From contig OZ024740.1 of NCBI GenBank assembly GCA_964016885.1, forward strand, positions 69,378,001 through 69,442,000: a stretch of DNA of 64,000 nt, given 5' to 3'. Position numbers and translations under genes: made by a program. Source of the stretch: Eledone cirrhosa (taxonomy: Eukaryota). Positions within the stretch are counted from its first letter, which is position 1. Each line of letters opens with the position of its first letter. Shown here in pieces: positions 3,155 to 64,000 of the stretch. The notes under the pieces were generated by a model. It was not told where the DNA came from and did not search any database. It saw nothing but the letters and a program-made list of their open reading frames with translations.

Positions 3155-5273
3155 TTTCCTATCGAAGTGGAAGGCCCTCCATCTAATCCGACACCAACAA
3201 CGATAAGTTTGGTTTCAAATCCTACAAAAACCTCACACCTCCGCACACCACCTCACAGTCTGTGGCCTACTCTTTGGGATTCTTTCGAGCAGGACTTAAT
3301 GAAAATGATAACCGGAATCAAATTTACAAACGGAAGGAAAAACGAACTTCAACGAGATATTAAAACTCTACTCGACAACCTAAGGAATACCAAAGGAATT
3401 ATCATAAAGGCAGACAAAACATCGAATCTATACACCCTGGATGTAGAAACATATAATAATTTTATACGTAAGGAATTACATAGGAAGTACAAAAAAACAA
3501 ACGCAACTACACTAACCAACATTAATAACGCAGCATGTGATATTGTTAAGAAACCGAAAATCGACGACAGAACGGTACCCCTATCTCCGGCTACACCGAC
3601 TTTTAATCTGAAGGACCATAAGGATAACTTCGATACCAACCCTAAAATTAGATTAATATGTCTTTCAAATGTAGGTAGAATCAGTAAGTACATATTAGAT
3701 CGTATTATCCCCCAAGTTAAGGCTAAGGTAGATATTAAATTATGGGGTAATACTCAACAGGCAATAAGATGGTTCAATAACATTAGTGACAAAAATAAAT
3801 CTTCTTTTATTCAATTCGATATAGATGAATACTATTCCTCTATTTCACCCGAAACCCTGCATAAGGCCCTCTCATTCGCTAAGACTAACCCGGACCTCAC
3901 AAATGAGGAAATTAATATTATACTTGAAGCTAGACGCACAGTAGTGCATTTTGAAAATAGTTATTGGGTCCGCAGAGATAGACCCTCGGAATTCGACATT
4001 ACGATGGTTTCTAATGATTCGGCGGAGGTCACGGATCTGGTTTGGATCTATATAGCCCACAGACTCCAGAGCGAATTTACGGACCTCCACGGCGGAATAT
4101 ACCGCGACGATACACTTCTATTAGTCAAGAATATGAACAAACAAAACCTAGAAAGGCGACGTAAAAACATTAGGAAACTTTTCTTAGAACTAGGGCTTAA
4201 TATTACCTTCGAACACAATTTTAAGGTGGTCAACTTCTTGGATGTCACCTTCAACCTTAATAACGGTAATATAGAGCCATTTCACACACTTAATGAAAAT
4301 CTCAAGTACGTTAATGTAAAATCGAACCATCCCCATTCCATTATTAAATCTATCTTTAAAAATATATCCATAAGGATCTCCCGATTGTCGTCTAATTTGC
4401 AGACTTTCAACGAGCATGCTGAATATTATAATGACGCACTTAGAAAATGTGGTTACTGCGATAAAATAGAATATCTAGACGATAACCACATAAGTACTAT
4501 GAATAAAACACATCTAAGTCGAACTAGTATTGCACCACACACACACATCAATAGGCATACTAATAGGTGCAAACCAGCAAATAGAGTCAGACGTATAACC
4601 CCGTGTACAATATTTCTATTAGCACTAAGATTATCTCACAATTCTATACACTAATCAATAAACACTTTACAACTTCACATAAATACTATAAAATCTTTAA
4701 CTCGCGCACCATTAGACTCTCATACTCCACTGCACCTAATATAGAACAACTAATTAAAAAACTCAACTCAGCAATACTAAATAAGGACATCCCTAATGAC
4801 TCAGCGCACCACCATAGCAACATACAACGCACTAACACGCAACTACAACCCCACCAACCTATCCAGGATACTACTGCAAAACATTAAAATAATTGTAACT
4901 GCACCAAACCAGGTACGTGCCCACTGAATAACCAGTGCCTAGCACGCAATATTGTCTACCGATGTACAATAAATTCCGGAACCAACAAATGGCATTACGT
5001 CGGATGTACCGCAACTTCTTTCAAAGCTCGCCTATACCAACATCGATCTTCGATCAGACACGAGAAAATGCGCTCCGTAACAACGCTCGCCGATAAAGCC
5101 TGGCAGCTCCGAAAGAAGAATCAAGCATTCTCCCTTGATTGGCAAATTATTGCTGCTGCGCCTGCATATAAGCAAAATCATCGATTCTGTAAATTATGCA
5201 ATATGGAGATATACTGCATTTTAACGTCGGTAAACAAACTTTTGAACAGCAAAATTGAACGTTCAGTGTACTG
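3155..5273 (+). pseudogene. Naiad-type PLE RT + GIY-YIG ORF, 5'-truncated, with frameshifts and a stop
   Basis: KWKALH, KFGF, ADKTSNLY, LKDHK, FIQFDIDEYY, FDITM, YRDD, VNFLDV and SNHP in ORF 3143-4654. Continues in 4603-4887 (KIFNSRTIRLSYS), then TAA at 4885, then CNCTKPGTCPLNNQC, IVYRC...HYVGCT, CKLCNME, LLNSKIE. Confidence 0.92.
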
Positions 5274-5699
5274 TATTTTTAAATGTAATGTTACCTTTTT
5301 ACACCACCGTTTGCAAATTTCTGTTTTATATGTTTATACACAAGATATGGATTTCTATAATAATAGTACTAAACACTATTTTCTGGACCCCTTTAGAAAT
5401 AACCTGCTACTATAATAGCCCCAATAACTTGTATGTATTTCTGTACCACTTTGACCCCTTTAACTAAATTTTGTCCAAACAACACCACTGGAAGAATTTA
5501 CTTCCCCCACCAACCCTAACACGCCTCATTAAGCTAACTGCTGCCAAAACATTCTCTCCTTACAATCTCTACTAGTCTGACAGTCTTAAATCCTAGGACT
5601 CCCATCCCCTTACTCACTTCCCTCTTCCCCCATCTCTTCCTACCTCCTTCTTTCTCTTTTATCTAGTGTATAAAATATTTTCATATCATTCCAATACAA

Positions 5700-5816
5700 A
5701 GGTCTGACGACATGGTGTGTTTGCTTGCAGTGTACTTTCGGTTTATGATAATATTTTTATATTATTCAAATAGCGAGGTATAGGTAACCCATACACTATA
5801 GAAACAATTGTTACCT
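5700..5816 (+). ncRNA. Hammerhead ribozyme with 90-nt extended stem II (Naiad 3' pLTR)
   Basis: AGGT-CTGACGA-[CATGGTGTGT...ATACACTATA]-GAAA-CAATTG-TT-ACCT; stem I AGGT/ACCT, palindromic stem III, followed by AATAAA. Confidence 0.8.
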
Positions 5817-6104: not shown

Positions 6105-6625
6105 CATGAATGCATCCGCACCCAACCGTGAGTTAAGGGTGCCAACTTCACCGATGTTGCTCAATGAATGACTGGGACAGACCAATCCGGTTGAACCAGA
6201 CTGAACCAGTATCAGAGTTAAAAATACATTATGAAGAGAGAAGAAACATTTAGATATAATTAGTAATAAAATGTATCATACCTAAACTGCTCCTAGATTC
6301 CTCGACTACGTAGTTTCGTGGCATAAACAAAAACAATACATCATAAAGATATAGAGTCCCTGCGAGGTCTGCCGACTTATCAAGAGGATACCTCATTTTA
6401 CTAGTCTCAAGAACGCGTCTACAGGACGTGAGAAAGAATCCCAAAAGGCGGAGGGGGAGATAGTCACGCGATATAACGGTCGAGAAACAGAGCTAAGCCT
6501 CTTATAACCCCGAAAAAAATAACACGGAGGCGGAGGGGGTATTCATATCGAAGCCGTAGAAGAGGTGGTGAAGGAGGCGAGAAGTATGAGTAATGGAAGC
6601 TTTCCAGCAGTCCCCACACTTCAAA
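6105..6625 (-). mobile_element. PLE pseudo-LTR plus tail, inverted
   Basis: HHR at 6299-6388 and a CCGGATT...CATTGAGCAA tail motif on the minus strand (~6148-6190), matching the tails at 5872-5908 and 38992-39031. Confidence 0.6.
6299..6388 (-). ncRNA. Hammerhead ribozyme, U3-A8 core variant, extended stem II
   Basis: Minus strand TCCTC-TTGATAA-[GTCGGCA...TGCCAC]-GAAA-CTACGTAG-TC-GAGGA; 5-bp stem I, palindromic stem III, GUC site. Confidence 0.75.
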
Positions 6626-6925
6626 GATTGCTCGAGATCAGCTGGAAAATATTGTCAACTGCTAAAGCATATCAAACTGGTATGTCCCATTGTAAGCTCT
6701 GTAATATGGAGCTCTTCCAAATACTTAATTTTAGTAAAACCCTTCTTAACAGTAGAATTGAACAAGCCATCTTCTGCCGGCATAAATCAGCAACGAAGTT
6801 CCTGAACTTTAGACCCACTTAACTCCATTTTCTTATTATTATTTCATTTTATACTTTTAGCACTAATTACGATATCTTATTATCACAAACTTCATAATTA
6901 CGTAGGAATAACCTAAAAACATTTG

Positions 6926-7761: not shown

Positions 7762-7866
7762 GTTCTCTGATGAAATGGTCAAACTTAAATGTATTGTAAA
7801 TTGAGTTGTACTTCTCCAGTATCTAGCAATTTATAGACAATTCTATCATGGAAACAATTGTAAAAC
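7762..7866 (+). ncRNA. Hammerhead motif with 77-nt extended stem II (stem I degraded)
   Basis: CTGATGA 7767-7773, ATGGT...ATCAT closing stem, GAAA-CAATTG-TA at 7851-7862, AATAAA at 7871. Confidence 0.65.
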
Positions 7867-14886: not shown

Positions 14887-17878
14887 ACATGGTTGACTAT
14901 TCGGATGACAATTTGGTGAGCGGAGTGGTCAACCTTGATAGAACCCATAGACAAGGACCCGGTTACTGGAAGCTAAACTTGTCCTTACCGACAAACAAAG
15001 CTTACAGTAAGCGGATTAGTTATCTAGTTAAGCAGCGGTTGACAGGGGCAATTGTCAACAGCAGGTGGTGGGCCTCTCTCAAGAGAGAAATTAGAATAGA
15101 ATCGATAGGTTTTAGTCAGGAATTAGCATCAGATAGGAATAGAACTGAAAAGGAATTGATAGTTAGAGTATAAGAGGCGATTAGGAGGGGCAACGTGGCC
15201 GGCGTGCTGGCGTCAAGAACGGCCCTAGACCAGTTCTTTGACGCGAAGCACGTGGGCTGTGTTGTCAGGAGTAATATACCTGCTCTGGGTAAACAGGGAG
15301 CCAAAGCTGTTGGCTGAGCCCGAGTGACAGAGATAAACGTGGAAACAAGTCCACGATTCGGTATTTGAAGGACCAGGATGGACGCGTGATCCTTGAACCT
15401 AAGCAGATGTGCGCGGCCTTTCAACGGCGCTTTGCACGACTGTTCGGGAGGGGCGGCGCTCCGAGTGAGGGCATGGATTTCGGTCCATACCTCGACGGTC
15501 TTCTGCGGCTCTCGGACGGGGAGGCTAAGTCCTGCGAAAGGCCGATTTCAGCCGCTGAAAGGAAAGCGCTGAGCGTATGCGGCAAACGCAAATCTCCCGG
15601 TATCGATGCTCTACCATACGAATTGTATGTAGCCTTGCCGGACTTGTTCTCCGATCTCCTCGAGGTGGTCTAATGCAACTGGCAACAGAACGGGAGAATT
15701 CCCAGTTCTGTGACCAAGGGCGTAGTCACGCTGGTGAGGAAGGACAAGAACAAGGGATATAACATAGATAACTTCAGGCCCATAACTCTGCTAAACCTAG
15801 AGTTAAAGATTTTGGCCAAGGTGTTAGCGAAGAGGTTGGCGCTTGTCGTCGGGAACCTGGTGGCAGAAGCGCAGACATGCGCAATCCCGTCCAGGTCCAT
15901 ACACGACAACTTCCACCTCATGCGATACATCATGGAGAGGGTTGGGAACGAACCCGGCTTTGGTGGGACCCTGATCAACTTGGATCAATCTAAGGCGTTC
16001 GATAGGGTCGACCATCGGTACCTGGATGCATTGCTCGCGGCGGCAGGCTTCGGACCCGTTTTCAGGGGCTGGATTGCTGCAATGCACAGCAGAAACACCT
16101 GCTCGAGTGTCAAGGTGACCGGCTACCTCTCGGAGCCATTCCAAATCGCGCGATCCATCCGACAGGGATGCCCTCTCTCCTCCCTTCTGTATGTGCTGGC
16201 TCTCGAGCCGCTACTGCGGGAGTTGGAGCTGTTGCAGGGAATCCCCTTAGAAACGGGATTGCGGAAAGCGGTGTCGGCCTACGCCGATGGCGTGACAGTG
16301 CGCCTCGGAAATCGGGCAGATCGGCACCTTACTGGAGGAATACGAAAGGTTTACAGGAGCCAAGCTGAACCGGGAACAGTCCGTCGGTTTGCAACTCGGA
16401 ACGTGGAGAGGCAAACCGATACCCTCCGACGGCGTCGTCCGTCGCTGGACGGAGTGACCGGTGAAGCTGCTCGGGGTCTGGTTCGGACCGGACCTCCAGG
16501 TGGAGAAAAACTGGGATGAGGTAACGGGAAGGGCGTTTGCACTCGCCCAGAAGTGGGCCGAGTGCAAACTATCCCTGAAAGGTCGAGCGGAGGTGGCGAA
16601 CACTTATATAGCGTCCGCAATCTACCACCGCTTGACCGTCGTGCCTTGCCCAGCGAAAACGCTCGCCAAAATGTAGCGCGCGCTCTTCCGATTCCTTTGG
16701 AAGAAGGGGCCCCTTTGGTGAGAAGATCCATCTGCTGTCAACACCCTTCGAACGGAGGGGTGGGAATGCCGTGGCTGACGATGCGTAGCCACGCATTAAG
16801 GCTACGGCACCTCCAGGTATTCCTCACCGGTCAGCTGGTGTGGGCCCCTTTTGTGAGGCGAGCTTTTCCGAGACTCGTCTCACTCACCGAGCTGCAATTC
16901 TGGTTCAAGCAAAGACCGAGAAATGTGGGCGACTGGCACATTGGATGTGCCCAGGTGCTCACGGCCCTCTGGCAAGCGGATCCGGCAATCAGTGGAGACT
17001 CAACCTCAACATTCTATAGACTGTTGGTGCGCAGCAAGTGCGACGATGCTCTCGGAGAGGCTCTGAGCATGGAGGAAGACGAGCTAGCCAGTCTGTTCGG
17101 TAGGACGTTTGGCCCGGGACCGATGGACAACTTCCAAAAGTCCCTGGCTTGGCAGTGCTACCGAGGAGCTCTACCCGTTCGGGACAAGCTCTACAGACAC
17201 GGGCGCCTGGGTAGGGACCCCTCGAAAAAGATCTGTCCGAGATGCGTGCGGGATGAGGAAACCGTCGCGCACGCAATCGTACACTGCCCGTGCGTTGCTG
17301 ACCTGTGGGGCTATGTGGAACGACTACTGTCGCGGGTGGGACCAATCCGGTTGACCACCGAGTACATTGTCACTATCACACCGCCTCCCCCTTCAAAAAC
17401 GAAGGAGATGCGGTTTTACTCTGTGTGATAGCTATGGCGAAAGAGGTTGTATGGTGGACGAGGTTGGAAGAGCTGAGGTCAGACACTTTTCTCTCCGGCC
17501 AACAGCTGGTCCTTTTTTTCAAGTGCCATTTTAGAAGAAGGATCAGAATGGAGAGAGAGGTGCTCTACCCCAGCAAGTTTTATGAAAGGTGGTTGAAAGT
17601 GGCGAGAATGGCCCGAGTGAATGGGCCTTCTCTCTATATCCGCCTGTAGGTGAGAGAGGAGAAGAAGGGAACACCCAATCTTTGTGCTCCTGAGGGGGAG
17701 GGTTGCACATTTTTTTCGCGGGTGTGCGCGACCCACGTCAACGCCCCCTCCCTTTTGAGGACTTCGATTGTTGAATTTGATTTGTTATATATTTTTACAC
17801 GTCCCTTGAAATATATGTAAACTCCCCTCTTGTATTTGTCCCAATCTTTGATGCCCTGGTGGCAAATAAATAGAAAGT
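14887..17878 (+). mobile_element. Tx1/L1-clade LINE ORF2, 5'-truncated, several stops and frameshifts
   Basis: GPGYWKLN (end of APE endonuclease), KSPGIDALPYELY, NFRPITLLNLELKILAKVLAKRL, DQSKAFDRVDH, RQGCPLS, AYADG, zinc finger CPRC...HAIVHC; stop at 17649, AATAAA at ~17865, then (TCTA)n. Confidence 0.92.
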
Positions 17879-24229: not shown

Positions 24230-24701
24230 TGATAGATAAGCTTTTTTGTTTATGTATATCAGGAATGAATGCTTAAACATGAAAACTGCTTACCAGATAG
24301 TTTGACTCAATGGTATCCTTTGAATCGCATAGCATAAATATCCAAGCAGAGGAATATGATATATATGTCCAGAAGAGATCGGGGAGTATGGGATATAATC
24401 AATTATTGCACCAAGAAAAATATAAACCTCGGCGGGAAAAGAAATTAGGAATTTGTTTGCTGAATTCTACCGCGTGGTGGATAGTCACTTCCACAAACAG
24501 TTATAAGCTTTCCGAAGAAGTGTTATAAATAATTATGTATTGCATATGATTGAACAATATATATTTTAGTCAGCTTATGTAGACAATTATAATAGACACG
24601 GAAACGTATGTTAAAGCAAATAAATTCCTAATTTCCTATCTCGACGAAGTTTATATTTTTCTTGTTCAATAGTTGTTGCTTATATTACACACTCTCACAA
24701 G

Positions 24702-28716: not shown

Positions 28717-28835
28717 GTTCCGATGAGCTGCTCTAATTGTACCCAAGTTAATTATTTTCAACTGGACCAGATAAATAGTGATATATAATCATTTGATTCA
28801 GAAATATTATATGGAGTAGCGAAACAATTGTAAAC
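28717..28835 (+). ncRNA. Hammerhead motif, CCGATGA core, 94-nt extended stem II
   Basis: GTT-CCGATGA-GCTGCTCTA...TGGAGTAGC-GAAA-CAATTG-TA-AAC; second copy at 32069-32182. Confidence 0.75.
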
Positions 28836-29179: not shown

Positions 29180-31720
29180 ATGTTGAGCAAGCAGGAACTC
29201 AGGATTTCACTTAAGTCTATACCTATCCCGGACAGGAAGACATACCTCAAACTCCTAATACAGAGTGTCAACTCTTTCATCCGAAGAATACGATGGAAAG
29301 CCTTTCCACTTCGACCATGCGGGTGCTGCTGACGCCGGATATACAGCAAACAGATATGGATTTACCACCTGCAAGAACCCTCCACACGACATCCTGGTGG
29401 ACACTTTTGAGAAAGATCTATTTAACTTCGTCAGGAGCATTAAATTCAAAAAGCATTATAGACACAAGAATAATTTCCTCACAAAATTAGCAATAACATT
29501 AAACAAATTTAAAGATAGCCACATCTTACATGTTATATCTGACAAAACTAAAATTCTATACACCATGACTCCTGAAACTTACAACTCTTTCCTTCTTAAG
29601 GAACTCAATAAACACTATAAAACAACTATACCCTCCAGTGTAAACTTACTTAACCGAAAAGCCCAGGCTTTGGTTAAGGACTTGCATCTGGATAGATTTA
29701 CCCACCCTTATGTACCTACAACCCCAAGGTTTTCTCTCAAGGATTACAAGCCAAACTTTATAGAGAACCCATCTATTAGACTTATAAGCCCAACCACATC
29801 CGACTTCAGTGGTATCAGTAAGAACATCCTTGATAGGATAATCCCTGGGCTACGAGATGATATCACCTACAAGCTGTGGTCCAACACCGGCCAAGTCATT
29901 ATATGGTTCTCCGATCTAAGGTCCAAGAAATCTATGAGGTTCATCCAATTTTACATTGACAGCTATTACGCTTCAATAACCCCGGAACTGCTCAACAAAG
30001 CATTAACCCTAGCCAGCACCAACTCTGACATAACCAATAATGAGATTGACGTCATACTTATGACTAGGCAGATCATCATTGAATTCAACGGAACACTCTG
30101 GACTAGAAAAGACAGAGCAGACAACTTTGACATCACGATGGGCTCAAGTGACTCCGCGTAAATCACTGATTTAGTTGGAATTTACCTATTACATATCATC
30201 AGAGCCGAAATGCAACCCTTGCAAGGCGGAATATACAGGGACGACGCCCTATTTGCAGTCCACAATTGCACTAATCGGGGCATTGATTTGCTAAAAAAAA
30301 ACAATTACATAGATTCTTTAAAAATAACGGTCTCTCTATCACCATCGAGCCGAACCATAAAGTAGTAAACTTCCTAGAAGTTACCCTGGATCTTAACAAT
30401 AACCTATATTACCCTTACCAAAAACCAGGTGAAATACTAACATATATTAGCCCACACTCTAACCACCCACCGGCAGTCATCAGAGCAGTAATCAAATCTA
30501 TCTCGTATAGGATCTCCATGCTATCAGCAAATGAGGAGATATTTATAAACCATGCGGCATATTATAATAAGGCTCTTTCTGAATCTGGTTATGAACAGTC
30601 CATTAACTACATACCTAAATGCCATAACACAGCAACTCACCACAGCCATAATAAACTTAACACTAGAACTAGAAATACCTTAGCAAATATCCAGATTCGC
30701 TGGAATTTTAGCAGTAACAGCACTTATACAGGGAACCTTAATGGTGGCAGTGGCCTGCTTCCCACTCCAAGTAGCAAACTAAAAATCAACTCTAGAATAT
30801 GAATGAGCAATGGGATGGCAAATAATAAATGCCCAGGTAATAATAACCCTATGAAGGCCCCTACCAACTCCACTAGAACCCCTAGAGGGAATAGGCCTAG
30901 AAATATCACCTGGCTTAACACCCCATTCTCATCTAATCTAGCCACTTATATCCCTAAACGCTTCTTCTATATCCTATCTAAACTTCCCCCCCCCCCCCAA
31001 CCATAGATATTACAAACTCTTTAATAAAAATAACATTAAAATCTCATTCTCCACACCACCTAACTTAGCAAGCTACATCGCATTCAGTAACCATCATAAA
31101 CTAAGACAGTATAACGCCCACACCGCGCTACCACCACCCCCATCAAATACACAACGCCACTACTCCAATACTTACTCTAGTAGCACACCTCCCCCATCTA
31201 ATCCTTCTAGCACTGACCAACCGCTTAGGTTAAACAACCATACTCTCACTAACTGCAGACGTAACTGCAAATGCCGTTACACTAATGCATGCCCACTAAA
31301 TGGACATTGCCTGACACCCAACATAGTCTATAGGTGCACGGTTAAAACAGCTTCGCATACCAACTCATATATCGGGTCTACATCTAACCCTTTTAAGGTA
31401 CGCTATAACGCGCACTCTTTTTCCTTCCGAGACCCTAACAACAGATGTTCGACATCTCTAGCTAGGCTCATTAAAAACCTTAAATTAACCAACATTGAAC
31501 ACTCACTAACATGGGATATCTTGTCTAGGGCCCAACCGTTCAATGGACGAAGAAAATCTTGTAACCTCTGTCTTACCGAAGCATATTACATAACTCTATC
31601 ACGACCTCTACCGATTAACGATAATCGGAGGTAAATATTAGCTGTCGACATCGAAGGACTAATTCCTTCGCTAACAGAATATTTGACCCAACATAGTCAT
31701 CTTGTCCCATCTTTACTTGT
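29180..31720 (+). pseudogene. Naiad PLE RT/GIY-YIG ORF, disrupted
   Basis: MLSKQELRISLKSIPIP...FIRRIRWKAF, frameshift, YGFTTCKNPP...FDITMGSSDSA, TAA at 30159, YRDD, SNHPP, RNITWLNTPF, CKCRYTNACPLNGHC, YIGSTSNPFKVRY, CNLCLTE, SCRHR. Confidence 0.92.
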
Positions 31721-35296: not shown

Positions 35297-35380
<84 letters not shown>

Positions 35381-35414
35381 AGATTTGAATGGATACAGTT
35401 TAGTTGAAAGGAAT

Positions 35415-35531
35415 TTATTGACACGTGTTTCTATAACAGTTACATAACCTAAAACAGCTATCTACAAACTTTTAGTTATGCAGACATTCAATATTTCAAT
35501 GTTATTATTTACTGTCATTTCATCAGAATAA
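35415..35531 (-). ncRNA. Hammerhead ribozyme with extended stem II (inverted pLTR copy)
   Basis: Reverse complement of 38829-38945. Confidence 0.85.
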
Positions 35532-35662
35532 TATTACTGAGGACCTATTTAGTTTTTATAGAGAATATTAGGAGGGAGGGGTGAAGTTGTTAGAAGAATA
35601 GTTGAAGGAGTGGTTTTTCGATAGCAGTGAGAATTCTTGGTGGCAGTGAGTAAAGAAGCCGT

Positions 35663-37894
35663 ATGAACTCAACATTAGAAAGTGGTGTAAACAACAAATT
35701 CGGTTTTAGGACTTATAAAAACCCACCCACCAACCCACTATTAGATGCATTTGAGCAGGACCTTATGAACTTAATCCTTAAAATTAAATTCAAAGGACGC
35801 AACACCAACAGCAAATTACAGAAAGATATAAAAAAACTACTGGACGACCTTAAAAACACCAAAGGAATTGTAGTAAAAGCGGACAAAACATCAAACCTGT
35901 ACACTATGGATTGCACTACATACAACAACTTCATTCGAAAAGAATTACATAAAAAATATAGAAAAACGAGTGAAGTAACCCTTAAGCACATCAATGATGA
36001 GGCATGCGAAATAGTGAAAAATCTCGGAATCGAAGATAGGACAGGACCACTCTTACCGGCGGTACCCACCTTCAATCTTAAGGACCACAAGGTAAACTTT
36101 GATAATGACCCTAAAATTAGATTAATCTGCCCCTCTAAATCAGATATAGGTAAAATAAGCAAATATATCTTAGATAGAATCATCCCCCAAATTAAGGCTA
36201 AGATTAACATTAAACTCTGGGGGAAGACCCAAGAAGCAATAAGATGGTTTAATAGCATTAGCAATAAGAATAAATCTAAGTTTATCCAGTTTGATATCGA
36301 TGAATATTACTCATCGATATCACCTGAAACTTTGAATAGAGCCATTAAGTTTGCTAAGGATAACTCTGACCTTACAAACGATGAAATTAAGATTATATTA
36401 GAAGCTAGGAAAACTATAGTCAAATTTGAGAACAGTTATTGGGTACGTAAAGATAGACCCTCTAACTTTGACATAACAATGGGCTCTAACGATTCGGCGG
36501 AAATAACTGATATTGTGGGGTTATTTATCGCCATTAGACTCCAGGAAAAATTCAGCAATCTCCACGGCGGAACATACCGCGACGATGTTCTCCTCCTAGC
36601 TAAAAACCTTAATAACCAAAAACTAGAAAAACTACGCAAAGATATAAGAAAACTACTACTCGAAATAGGACTAACTATAACATATGAATACAACCTTAAA
36701 GTAGTTAACTTCCTGGATGTCACACTCAATTTAAACTCTGGTTTGATTAAACCGTTTCATAAATTGAATGAAAATCTCAAATACGTAAATGTTGGGTCTA
36801 ACCACCCCATCTCTATAATTAAATCTATCCCTAAAAATATTTCCCTTAGAATCTCGGGTCTATCTTCTAACATACAAGTTTTTAAGGAACACGCCGAGTA
36901 CTACGATAACGCCCTTAGTAAAGCAGGCTACCTCAACAAAATAGAGTACATAGATGGGAACAATCAAAACACCCAAAATAAATCCCACATAGGTAGATAT
37001 AATAACACAACACCAAACCACACTTACTACCATAGTATGCACACCAGTAAACCAACAAACAAAACTAATAGAAAGCGATGCAAAGAGTACTTATGGTATA
37101 TCCCCGAATACAATAGCTCCATTAGTACAAATTTACCAGTACTCTTCTTTAAAATAATTAAAAGACATTTTCCCACATCACACAAATACCACAAAATCCT
37201 AAACCCTACCACTATAAGACTGTCATACTCTACAGCGTTAAACCTTGAACAACACATAAAAAAGATCAATACTAGAAGGTTAAACGAAAACACTAAGAAC
37301 TTAAGTACAAAGAACACAAAAAAAACAGTAGACAATACACTACAGAACATAAATAAACCACACCTAAGTTCGTCCGCAATACTACTCCAGAGAAAACCCA
37401 ACGTACACAACTGTAACTGCACCTATCCTGACAACTGCCCCCTCGGCAATAACTGCCTGGAAAAAAATATTATTTATAAGTGTACCATTAAATCCGGAGG
37501 CAACGAGTGGTATTACGTGGGATCAACGGCAACATCGTTTAAATCTCGATTGTATAGGCATTCTTACTCAATAAAACACCAGAGCCAAAGAAATGTAACA
37601 ACTTTAGCAGAAAAAGCTTGGACGCTCAGGGATAGCGACCAAAAGTTTACCCTAAAATGGGAAAAATTAGCTAAAACCCAAAGCTTTTCCAGGAGCCAAA
37701 ATTTCTGCAAATTGTGTAATCTTGAGATTTATTACATAATCACACACAAGAAGAAACTGCTGAATAACAGAATTGAACGAACATTATTCTGCCGTCACAG
37801 AACTAAAACCCTTTTTCCCACTACAAGCCGAATATTACATAAAAGAGGGACATCCCCCAACTATATAAACCTTAATCTAGTTAGAAAAATATAA
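35663..37894 (+). CDS. Penelope-like (Naiad-type) reverse transcriptase with Cys-rich linker and GIY-YIG endonuclease, 743 aa, N-terminally truncated
   Basis: Uninterrupted ORF: ADKTSNLY, LKDHK, FIQFDIDEYY, ITMGSNDSAE, YRDD, VNFLDV, SNHP, CNCTYPDNCPLGNNC, IIYKC...YYVGSTATSFKSR, CKLCNLE, LLNNRIE...FCRH. Confidence 0.95.
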   Translation: MNSTLESGVNNKFGFRTYKNPPTNPLLDAFEQDLMNLILKIKFKGRNTNSKLQKDIKKLLDDLKNTKGIVVKADKTSNLYTMDCTTYNNFIRKELHKKYRKTSEVTLKHINDEACEIVKNLGIEDRTGPLLPAVPTFNLKDHKVNFDNDPKIRLICPSKSDIGKISKYILDRIIPQIKAKINIKLWGKTQEAIRWFNSISNKNKSKFIQFDIDEYYSSISPETLNRAIKFAKDNSDLTNDEIKIILEARKTIVKFENSYWVRKDRPSNFDITMGSNDSAEITDIVGLFIAIRLQEKFSNLHGGTYRDDVLLLAKNLNNQKLEKLRKDIRKLLLEIGLTITYEYNLKVVNFLDVTLNLNSGLIKPFHKLNENLKYVNVGSNHPISIIKSIPKNISLRISGLSSNIQVFKEHAEYYDNALSKAGYLNKIEYIDGNNQNTQNKSHIGRYNNTTPNHTYYHSMHTSKPTNKTNRKRCKEYLWYIPEYNSSISTNLPVLFFKIIKRHFPTSHKYHKILNPTTIRLSYSTALNLEQHIKKINTRRLNENTKNLSTKNTKKTVDNTLQNINKPHLSSSAILLQRKPNVHNCNCTYPDNCPLGNNCLEKNIIYKCTIKSGGNEWYYVGSTATSFKSRLYRHSYSIKHQSQRNVTTLAEKAWTLRDSDQKFTLKWEKLAKTQSFSRSQNFCKLCNLEIYYIITHKKKLLNNRIERTLFCRHRTKTLFPTTSRILHKRGTSPNYINLNLVRKI

Positions 37895-38246: not shown

Positions 38247-38828
38247 GTATATATATGTATATATGTATGTATATATGTGTATATGGATGTGTAAGTATGT
38301 GTATGTGTGTACACATGGACTAGAGTATGTATGTATATATGTGTGTGTCTATACGTGTGTATATAAAGATAAGTTGAGTATGAAAATGTATACACATGAG
38401 CGCGTATGTATGTACATGAATACATGTGTGTATATATATGTGTATGCATGTGTATATATATGTAAGTATGAATATGTGAATTGTGAGTATATGTATTTTG
38501 TAGAGGTGTGCAAATATATTTGTGTGTGAATGCGTGGGTGTAAGGATACGTACACTTGAAAGAAAAATTTAAGTCTGAATGTTAATTAAGTGCAAACACA
38601 AAACCAACCACGCATATCTTTACTATCTCTAATCCTTCTATAGATTTAGAAAAATAACCAATAATATATTCTATAAAAAATGTCAAAACAACAGATGGGA
38701 ATCTAATTACTCACTGCCACCAAGAATTCTCACTGCTATCGAAAAACCACTCCTTCAACTATTCTTCTAACAACTTCACCCCTCCCTCCTAATATTCTCT
38801 ATAAAAACTAAATAGGTCCTCACTAATA

Positions 38829-38945
38829 TTATTCTGATGAAATGACAGTAAATAATAACATTGAAATATTGAATGTCTGCATAACTAAAAGTTTGTAGAT
38901 AGCTGTTTTAGGTTATGTAACTGTTATAGAAACACGTGTCAATAA
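38829..38945 (+). ncRNA. Hammerhead ribozyme with 88-nt extended stem II
   Basis: TTATT-CTGATGA-[A-ATGACAGT...ACTGTTAT-A]-GAAA-CACGTG-TC-AATAA; canonical core, GUC site, palindromic stem III. Confidence 0.88.
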
Positions 38946-39129
38946 ATTCCTTTCAACTAAACTGTATCCATTCAAATCTTTCTATTTTTCTCCGGATTAC
39001 TTTTGGAACTACAACTGGAACCGTTGAGCAAACTCTACGTGAGCTGATAATCTACTGTGTGTAATATTTATATTACAACACGACGGAAAATACTGTATAT
39101 ATATATATATATATATATATACATACATG

Positions 39130-62972: not shown

Positions 62973-63072
<100 letters not shown>

Positions 63073-63362
63073 CAAATAACGAAACGAAATTAAATTTCGT
63101 TTCGTTTGTAACTCACTTTTGTATGACTGACGCTTAAACAATTAAGTTAAAAATGTACATCTACATATGCATACTGAAATACTAGTCTGTATATGAATAC
63201 ACACACGTATACATATGTAGGTGTACCAAGTCTTTCACTGGTCGCTTTACAGTGAGCGGCCCAGCTATTCTGTACGTAAACACACAGACAAACCGGTTTT
63301 TAGAGTCATACTGGTTTTCGGGGGGAACACCTTCCCTCCATTCTCCAGAAAGCCAGACAAGG

Positions 63363-63407
63363 AATATTGGACTAGTTTCGTTGTTGTTACAACTCATCAG
63401 CAATATT
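63363..63407 (-). ncRNA. Type I minimal hammerhead ribozyme (unit 1)
   Basis: AATATTG-CTGATGA-GTTGT-AACA-ACAAC-GAAA-CTAG-TC-CAATATT; 7-bp stem I, 5-bp stem II, GUC site. Confidence 0.93.
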
Positions 63408-63492
63408 TACCTATCTACCGGCCTTTCTGGAGAATTGTAAAAGCACATATCGTTATATGCTTTTTCTATGAAAATTAGTAGTGGGCAGACTA

Positions 63493-63500
63493 ATTTGCAT
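63493..63500 (-). promoter_or_regulatory. Octamer (ATGCAAAT) conserved upstream of retrozyme HHRs
   Basis: Also at 63961, 9017, 50989, 19748 and 19814; the HHR-proximal copy is 88-100 nt upstream of the HHR core wherever both are seen; function inferred. Confidence 0.5.
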
Positions 63501-63830
63501 AGAGTGTGAGTACGCACCGGTTCAGCGGAGACGATAAAAACAAATAACGAAACGAAATTAAATTTCGTTTCGTTTGTAACTCACTTTTGTATGACTGACG
63601 CTTAAACAATTAAGTTAAAAATGTACATCTACATATGCATACTGAAATACTAGTGTGTATATGAATACACACACGTATACATATGTAGGTGTACCAAGTC
63701 TTTCACTGGTCGCTTTACAGTGAGCGGCCCAGCTATTCTGTATGTAAACACACAGACAAACCGGTTTTTAGAGTCATACTGGTTTTCGGGGGGAACACCT
63801 TCCCTCCATTCTCCAGAAAGCCAGACAAGG

Positions 63831-63875
63831 AATATTGGACTAGTTTCGTTGTTGTTACAACTCATCAGCAATATT
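63831..63875 (-). ncRNA. Type I minimal hammerhead ribozyme (unit 2)
   Basis: Identical to 63363-63407, 468 bp further along. Confidence 0.93.
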
Positions 63876-64000
63876 TACCTATCTACCGGCCTTTCTGGAG
63901 AATTGTAAAAGCACATATCGTTATATGCTTTTTCTATGAAAATTAGTAGTGGGCAGACTAATTTGCATAGAGTGTGAGTACGCACCGGTTCAGCGGAGAC

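Follow-up and report, generated by a model that had tools for sequence, protein, structure and literature searches.

Predicted hammerhead ribozymes of Hydra-clade Penelope-like elements in Eledone cirrhosa have long stem II arms that often share a small internal loop

Why would a retrotransposon hammerhead carry a long hairpin where a short stem II is expected? Canonical contacts between loop II and stem I of hammerheads use a short stem II. In a 64,000-nt stretch of the Eledone cirrhosa genome (contig OZ024740.1, positions 69,378,001 to 69,442,000; hereafter the window), 88 nt separate the two core halves of a predicted hammerhead in a Penelope-like element (PLE). A sequence-only reading of the window had described this insert and several others nearby, had ascribed them to Naiad elements, and had argued that inserts of similar length without shared sequence might form a functional module. 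We find that the long-armed form is real and abundant, that it belongs to a known pairing of ribozyme and retrotransposon, and that a conserved loop in its arms is the one new testable feature.

Judged from its sequence, the focal motif is a hammerhead of the known dimer type of PLEs, in a Hydra element (Table 1). The CUGANGA and GAAA core halves, a UH cut site, and three stems are all present. The R10.1-Y11.1 pair that would close stem II is absent: A is opposite A in the focal copy and A-U is found in one subfamily. The insert lies between CUGAUGA and GAAA exactly where the sequence-only reading had placed it, and it does fold into the hairpin drawn there (-24.1 kcal/mol, z = -4.35, with 0 of 200 shuffles as good). 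The palindrome of stem III has a computed duplex energy of -10.3 kcal/mol. In the focal family, the putative poly(A) signal doubles as the 3' strand of stem I. More broadly, AAUAAA or AUUAAA is found no more than 25 nt from the cut in 20 of 32 long-armed clusters, in all 6 clusters with 20-nt arms, and in 1 of 8 short non-Hydra-like clusters, and likewise in several metagenome Hydra loci.

Table 1. Predicted features of the window. Positions count from its first letter.
Feature	Position	Strand	Remarks
Type I hammerhead motif (predicted), focal	38829..38945	+	In 3' pLTR of Hydra-clade PLE
Focal stem I	38829-33/38941-45	+	UUAUU/AAUAA
Focal core	38834-38840; 38929-38932	+	CUGAUGA; GAAA
Focal stem II	38841..38928	+	88 nt, irregular 33-bp hairpin
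Lower motif of focal stem II	38859..38912	+	CAUU 38859-62 / AGG 38910-12; bulged A, U-G, U-A; in minimum-energy fold
Upper motif of focal stem II	38871..38903	+	GAAU 38871-74 / AGC 38901-03
Focal stem III	38932..38939	+	Palindromic, ACACGUGU; predicted pairing between two hammerheads
Focal cut site	after 38940	+	GUC; predicted cleavage
AAUAAA directly 3' of cut	38941..38946	+	Poly(A)-signal-like by sequence, putative
3' end region	38941..39080	+	Copy ends at about 45 nt (38985) or about 135-140 nt after cut
Inverted pLTR copy	35375..35653	-	99.6% identical; same hammerhead at 35526-35420
Hydra-type RT-GIY-YIG ORF	35654..37894	+	5'-truncated, 746 aa open
Predicted hammerhead	5704..5812	+	90-nt stem II (5711-5800); lower motif CAGU/AGG
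Predicted hammerhead	6299..6388	-	U3-A8 core (UUGAUAA 6383-6377); 59-nt stem II
Predicted hammerhead	7767..7862	+	77-nt stem II (7774-7850); Hydra EN fragment at 6637-6801
Predicted hammerhead	24512..24612	+	82-nt stem II; CCGAAGA core; lower motif UAUU/AGA
Predicted hammerhead	28720..28832	+	94-nt branched stem II (28727-28820); cluster F62
Predicted hammerhead	32072		90-nt stem II; sister pLTR/direct-repeat partner of 28720; stem III disrupted

Upstream of stem I, the segment 38790-38824 (CUAAU ... CCUCAG) resembles a branch point followed by a 3' splice site, at the position where the Penelope intron ends; position 38823 is C in the window's plus-strand copy and G in the family. We also considered whether 5' ends cluster at the CAG that precedes stem I and dropped the idea, as just 5 of 77 copy contexts begin at 38823-38833.

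The parent element is a Hydra-clade PLE, an assignment that rests on domain order and motifs, with reference Hydra proteins that resemble it by eye and unnamed homologues used in the trees. In the focal element, in the element before the hammerhead at 5704, and in those of clusters F56, F62, and F67, the reverse transcriptase (RT) comes first and the GIY-YIG endonuclease is C-terminal. The focal ORF has the motifs ADKT, a CxCX5C linker (CNCTYPDNC), CKLCNLE, and NNRIE..CRH; CxxC and CxH lie beside the conserved E and N, and CCHH is absent by eye. Six of seven longer copies in the family add an RWK-bearing N-terminus. As described by Craig et al. (2021, PMC8557442), the Hydra diagnostics are a C-terminal GIY-YIG, RWK, DKT, and CxCX5C, and Naiads instead have an N-terminal GIY-YIG endonuclease, a CxC linker, and then an RT with a DKA motif. 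We therefore rejected the Naiad label of the sequence-only reading, because GIY-YIG is not N-terminal and ADKT stands in place of DKA. Database homologues of the focal protein are 31-39% identical, and in the tree the host families group together (94/98), beside one unnamed protein and one from Argonauta, as would fit an octopod host. Pfam gave no hit for the focal ORF and a weak GIY-YIG match at 4888-5412. A SECIS element was also rejected: the 746-aa ORF contains no UGA, and no AUGA..GA core was seen in the fold.

The hammerhead itself agrees with Hydra-clade hammerheads (Craig et al. 2021, PMC8557442) in clade, location 3' of the ORF, type I topology, a palindromic short stem III, a frequent mismatch at the base of stem II (often U opposite U at 10.1-11.1 in the published motifs), and (TA)n targets; insertion into (TA)n was seen for the focal family. 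With the minimal PLE hammerheads of Cervera and de la Pena (2014, PMC4209133) it shares the pLTR location, a helix II that is longer than usual, an extra base after A9, a palindromic helix III, the occurrence of U3-A8 variants, and the dimer model. The arm is what differs. Helix II in that account has 7-8 bp and a conserved G10.1-C11.1 pair, whereas the focal motif has A opposite A and a 33-bp arm. Similarly, all 26 Hydra rows of File S2 of Craig et al., including Hydra-1_oBim, have 3-7-bp stems and 3-10-nt loops, whereas the arms described here reach 116 nt and have a conserved loop. The longest arm in that file, of about 52 nt, is from a spike-moss element (PLE-X1_sMoe) and is flagged there as deviating. 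Discontinuous Clec2 hammerheads of mammals (PMC2950038) are also natural hammerheads with a large insertion that escape standard patterns, but they sit in the 3' UTRs of host mRNAs and come from a search that permitted insertions in loops 1 and 3, and the insertion here is a structured stem II inside a retrotransposon. Among the titles and abstracts that we searched, no PLE hammerhead had a stem II of such size or such a loop (full texts or supplements could hold long-stem cases), and within this material the spike-moss arm and the Clec2 hammerheads are the nearest precedents.

The other inserts that had been listed for the window, of 90, 77, and 94 nt, also lie where they were said to lie (Table 1), and these long motifs are real, but the list had missed the ones at 24512 and 32072 and the inverted copy of the focal motif. 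A fifth motif, with a 59-nt insert, is real as well, although it is on the minus strand and has a U3-A8 core; a U3-A8-type hammerhead with a 62-nt arm is also present at locus L321. The hammerhead at 5704 follows a frameshifted Hydra ORF (3272-5310) at a distance of about 390 nt, and a decayed Hydra ORF (29349-31622) lies between those at 28720 and 32072. Stem I of the hammerhead at 7767 is damaged in the window and intact in L079-L081. Short or medium hammerheads are found at 2167, 8485, 9105, 33169, 51077, 63400, and 63868. The last two belong to a retrozyme-like repeat on the minus strand (63066-64000) of two tandem 467-nt units, each with one short hammerhead. A LINE fragment with RVT_1 and zf-RVT domains occupies 15674-17428 on the plus strand.

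As the sequence-only reading had warned, searches with short loop limits miss such motifs: Rfam gave 0 gathering-level hits over the window, and the core search described by Craig et al. has a 7-17-nt spacer (PMC8557442). A pattern search with wide loop limits in the 3.0-Gb host genome found 7,946 matches with 65-95 nt between the core halves and one stem III (5 in reversed controls), 14,840 with 96-125 nt (148 in reversed controls), and 3,838 with 65-125 nt and the focal type of stem III (52 in reversed controls), or about 26,000 long-armed matches against about 200 in controls. These counts are rough because some long matches join a stray upstream CUGANGA to a short motif. The 20-nt family F10 (L066, L121) has an additional CUGAAGA about 45 nt before the true core, and one listed match has a CUGACGA still further upstream. 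There were 3,257 matches with 30-64 nt (190 in controls) and 12,657 with 10-29 nt (90 in controls). With a strict descriptor, 80 ten-kb stretches that were not chosen for hammerheads (70 genome-wide and 10 flanking the window) gave 46 hits, and 0 when reversed. Neither published descriptors nor Rfam allow a stem II as long as in these roughly 26,000 matches from one genome, and hammerheads in such genomes are therefore undercounted.

Pooling all loci gave 239 distinct inserts in 70 clusters (copy counts in this set are inflated, as some loci were entered twice). Arm lengths form a continuum from 12 to 116 nt in which 77-94 nt does not stand out, and the claim of similar length does not hold. 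Hydra ORFs lie within 2 kb upstream, in several copies each, of clusters with arms of 20 nt (F11, F13), 81 nt (F56), 90 nt (F60), 88-92 nt (F61, the focal cluster), 94-96 nt (F62), and 101-116 nt (F66, F67, F69). The ORF links of F19, F29, F58, and F63 come from one or two loci that may be nested insertions, and these clusters were omitted from the tree for the AU test. A class with 57-63-nt arms had no Hydra ORF within 2 kb upstream of any copy, so it is tied to Hydra only by its stem III, its AAUAAA, and the loop that we describe below. Among metagenome loci of Hydra type, 38 of 77 gave a hammerhead call, and 37 of these 38 have arms of 11-29 nt; the single 97-nt call (L377) has a visible 13-nt alternative. 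As the published Hydra arms are short too, the long arm appears to be lineage-restricted. The four host groups form a polytomy, and a single long-armed clade is not rejected (AU p = 0.096, from 9 host rows and 6 outgroups); a hint in a quick tree that short arms are nested among long-armed families was not upheld.

Lengths of this kind might arise neutrally, if the ribozyme tolerates a growing arm. The arm would be extended by RT slippage or fold-back copying, selection would keep nothing beyond a closed hairpin, and any loop would be inherited baggage. The continuum of lengths favors this explanation, as do the prosperity of the short-armed Hydra families (the 12,657 matches above), the existence of deletion variants between short repeats (such as a 63-nt copy in L006), and the fact that one common origin of the long-armed families is not rejected. 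The folding energies also favor it, in that the median z across the long clusters is only -1.9, with 15 of 32 at -2 or below. In the window, the expectation that the inserts fold better than shuffled controls holds for the focal insert and for the one at 5711 (z = -2.85) and fails at 7774 (z = -1.21) and 28727 (z = -0.71).

Another possibility is that the arm serves host proteins that bind double-stranded RNA, such as ADAR, Drosha/Dicer, or Staufen-like proteins, as a substrate or a decoy; the first two of these had been proposed from the sequence. The hairpins in the arms reach 33-44 bp, and octopods edit their RNA heavily. But in 10 of the 11 families checked, the longest perfect run has just 5-11 bp, two families (F62, which includes 28720, and F63) have two hairpin loops and are branched, and the arm sequences are not conserved as the arms of miRNAs are. 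In L177 and L197 (F63/F64), as at 28727-28820, stem II is a two-hairpin junction rather than a single rod. A pre-miRNA would have a near-continuous stem of about 35 bp, single-stranded flanks, and a conserved arm, and we rejected it because of the large internal loops, the branching, and the turnover of the arms; Rfam, besides its lack of gathering hits in the window, gave sub-threshold matches to AT-rich miRNAs in four loci. As to ADAR, changes in the focal stem are rare across 77 copy contexts, and A>G equals T>C (5 versus 5), a comparison of low power. We consider a role for such host proteins very unlikely. Contig sets from four sequencing runs contained family variants and no joints, and have no bearing on expression, editing, or splicing.

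A spliceosomal intron might also be retained within the arm, so that splicing would return stem II to a short canonical form. Removing 64 nt (GUAAAU...UUUUAG) from the focal insert leaves a 24-nt hairpin, near the arm size of Hydra-1_oBim; PLEs are described as retaining introns near the hammerhead (PMC4209133); and F66 and F67 have the donor AG|GUAUGU and score above shuffles (p = 0.01 and 0.04, with rough weights). With the same weights, the focal donor is weak (p = 0.14), and one subfamily reads GUUGAU at this site. Twelve of 32 clusters lack any GT-AG interval of at least 40 nt. For the two junctions tested there were 0 intron-less genomic copies, although PLE copies usually keep their introns. 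The conserved AG of the 57-63-nt class comes after a G and would thus be a weak acceptor; the 5' strand that pairs with it is equally conserved. We give this explanation only a slim chance.

The predicted helices of the long arms covary. Across 31 sequences of the 57-63-nt class, 85.8% of cells are paired, as compared to 30-43% in slid controls, and 97 cells changed on both sides, as compared to 36.7 when shuffled. Double-sided changes occur in 6 of the 7 basal pairs, and the four pairs that flank the loop have none. Across 15 sequences of the 75-82-nt class, 89.6% are paired and 59 cells changed on both sides (21.4 when shuffled); the pairs of the lower loop are intact in 14-15 of the 15 sequences, and individual pairs of the spacer helix have as many as 7 double-sided changes. 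These counts are inflated by relatedness, and both structures were drawn by hand from member sequences, because unsupervised RNAalifold recovered only the basal helix of the first class and only the middle helices of the second.

The loop within these helices is 5'-NANU/AGN-3': a closing pair, an A facing a G, one free base, and then U-A. If the free base is U, the loop reads as a bulged A followed by U-G. We admitted folds within 3 kcal/mol of the minimum, took at most four members from each cluster, and dropped one deletion variant of the focal family. On these terms the loop is present in 19 of 32 long clusters (at least 55 nt), which are related and so are not independent. The next of 90 loop types reached 7. 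None of the 19 clusters with arms of 31-54 nt had it. We spotted the loop by eye and widened its definition after a stricter run gave 13 of 32 (versus 4); with first members alone, it is present in 16 of 32, as compared to 0-4 in 30 structure-preserving shuffles. Three matches are marginal (2.0-3.0 kcal/mol), and the loop is missing by this test in 13 of 32 long clusters, including F63/F64 and several old 57-63-nt copies. By eye, the hammerhead at 6299-6388 also lacks the motif. Still, the statement that the inserts have no sequence in common has to be given up.

The loop is variable in its setting. The closing pair may be G-C, U-A, or C-G; the loop is found twice per arm in F56, F58, and F61; and its distance from the core ranges from a 3' offset of 11-18 nt in most arms to 41-48 nt in the longest class. 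The upper of the two focal motifs lies 0.9 kcal/mol above the minimum in the 88-nt subfamily and is in the minimum fold of the 92-nt form. Within the focal family (77 copy contexts), the only subfamily-level change in the two loops is at the free N (A, G, or U at 38873). The loop recurs even in families whose protein has just about 30-66% identity to the focal ORF. Families F59-F61 (82-92 nt) could not be aligned to the rest with MAFFT, so their loops are taken from single-sequence folds. In the 57-63-nt class the loop reads AGUC/CGAG, which resembles loop A of the hairpin ribozyme; we set this likeness aside, since the G is absent from the other classes and we saw no loop B.

A small loop is conserved, then, in many families while the stems around it turn over, so far as the aligned and folded sequences can tell. 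Neutral growth accounts for the continuum of lengths, but it does not account for the loop: adjacent helix pairs were replaced repeatedly and the loop positions were not, and the loop recurs with different closing pairs, twice in some arms, and in families with strongly diverged proteins. We consider neutral growth of the whole arm rather unlikely; if the loop were neutral, the finding would reduce to a lineage-specific size variant. The proposal of a functional module is upheld in so far as covarying helices surround a conserved loop, and not by the argument from equal length.

Arms have lengthened elsewhere in the host genome too. At L024, a hammerhead with a 49-nt arm and the stem III CCGCCGG has a Neptune-like endonuclease upstream and no NANU/AGN loop. 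Related clusters of 46-53 nt form a second class of lengthened arms, also without this loop. The Neptune-like endonuclease suggests that arm growth extends beyond Hydra elements.

What might the loop do? The ends of genomic copies bear on this. Of 77 copy contexts, 39 end about 45 nt past the cut and 30 end 135 nt or more past it, and we infer that these are start sites of reverse transcription. Because copies end beyond the predicted cut, the copied RNA probably ran through the cut site, and uncleaved RNA is likely the template for copying. In tandem copies, an AUG lies about 200 nt past the cut. The Poseidon element PAc of the green anole, as reported by Frangieh et al. (2024, PMC11167929), is similar in that two internal RT starts 3' of the hammerhead define a tail, uncleaved RNA is the main template, and cleavage occurs only with protein added. 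It differs in that it is from another clade, its ORF begins at stem II, and the region needed for activity is downstream of the start of stem II, whereas here the AUG is well past the cut, with a tail of about 95 nt.

Where covarying helices enclose a loop of conserved sequence, the loop is typically a recognition site. The irregular stems with a conserved bulge near the site of copying in telomerase RNA (stem IV) and in hepatitis B epsilon provide a working analogy, with no sequence or structural identity claimed. Since the nearest known binder is the element's own protein, the reading that we favor, and that we put slightly short of an even chance, is that the long stem II would be an accessory docking arm for the element's own RT-endonuclease, which would bind via the NANU/AGN loop. 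In the host lineage, stem II would have been extended to its present long and irregular hairpin. With a mere palindrome as stem III, a monomeric ribozyme would remain uncut, and cleavage would occur in a dimer or with help from a protein. Reverse transcription of the intact RNA would begin 45 and about 140 nt past the cut. Some 75-130 nt before the first of these start sites, the long arm would present one or two loops to the protein, and its closing helix would hold both halves of the core together. The arm would not be essential to the clade, as short-armed Hydra families thrive in the same genome. The copy ends described above fit with how the anole Poseidon element is copied and with the low, dimer-dependent activity reported for PLE hammerheads (PMC4209133). 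The RT of PLEs is described as the sister group of TERT (PMC8557442), and a stronger version would have NANU/AGN as the docking site of a telomerase-related RT whose binding both selects the RNA for copying and gates self-cleavage; this we think unlikely.

Alternatively, the arm might tune self-cleavage itself, with the loop as a tertiary receptor or as a handle that pairs two hammerheads and sets the timing of a dimer-dependent cut. In natural hammerheads, loop II makes functional contacts with stem I (PMC3088659). In relatives of the focal motif, stem I and the stem III palindrome covary, with 10 double changes at the center of the palindrome, as the dimer model predicts, and the focal monomer fold with stem I forced is 3.4 kcal/mol above the minimum. 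These observations are consistent with tuning. However, the distance from the loop to the core varies, the loop lies farther out than the short stem II of canonical contacts, and the apical loop of the focal stem II differs between subfamilies, even inside one family. We consider tuning of cleavage distinctly improbable.

The loop bears on how PLEs may recognize their own RNA and on what their hammerheads do. If NANU/AGN is the docking site, it would be the first defined cis-acting recognition element of any Penelope-like retrotransposon, and the motif would be a natural protein-switched hammerhead in tens of thousands of copies. Dozens of diverged arms that keep one loop provide a precise target for mutation, and there are young, intact elements in which to test it. 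The focal family appears to be a very young expansion: an endonuclease query gave 60,848 first-look candidates, many of them 98-99% identical, and several young copies keep ORFs of 785-798 aa.
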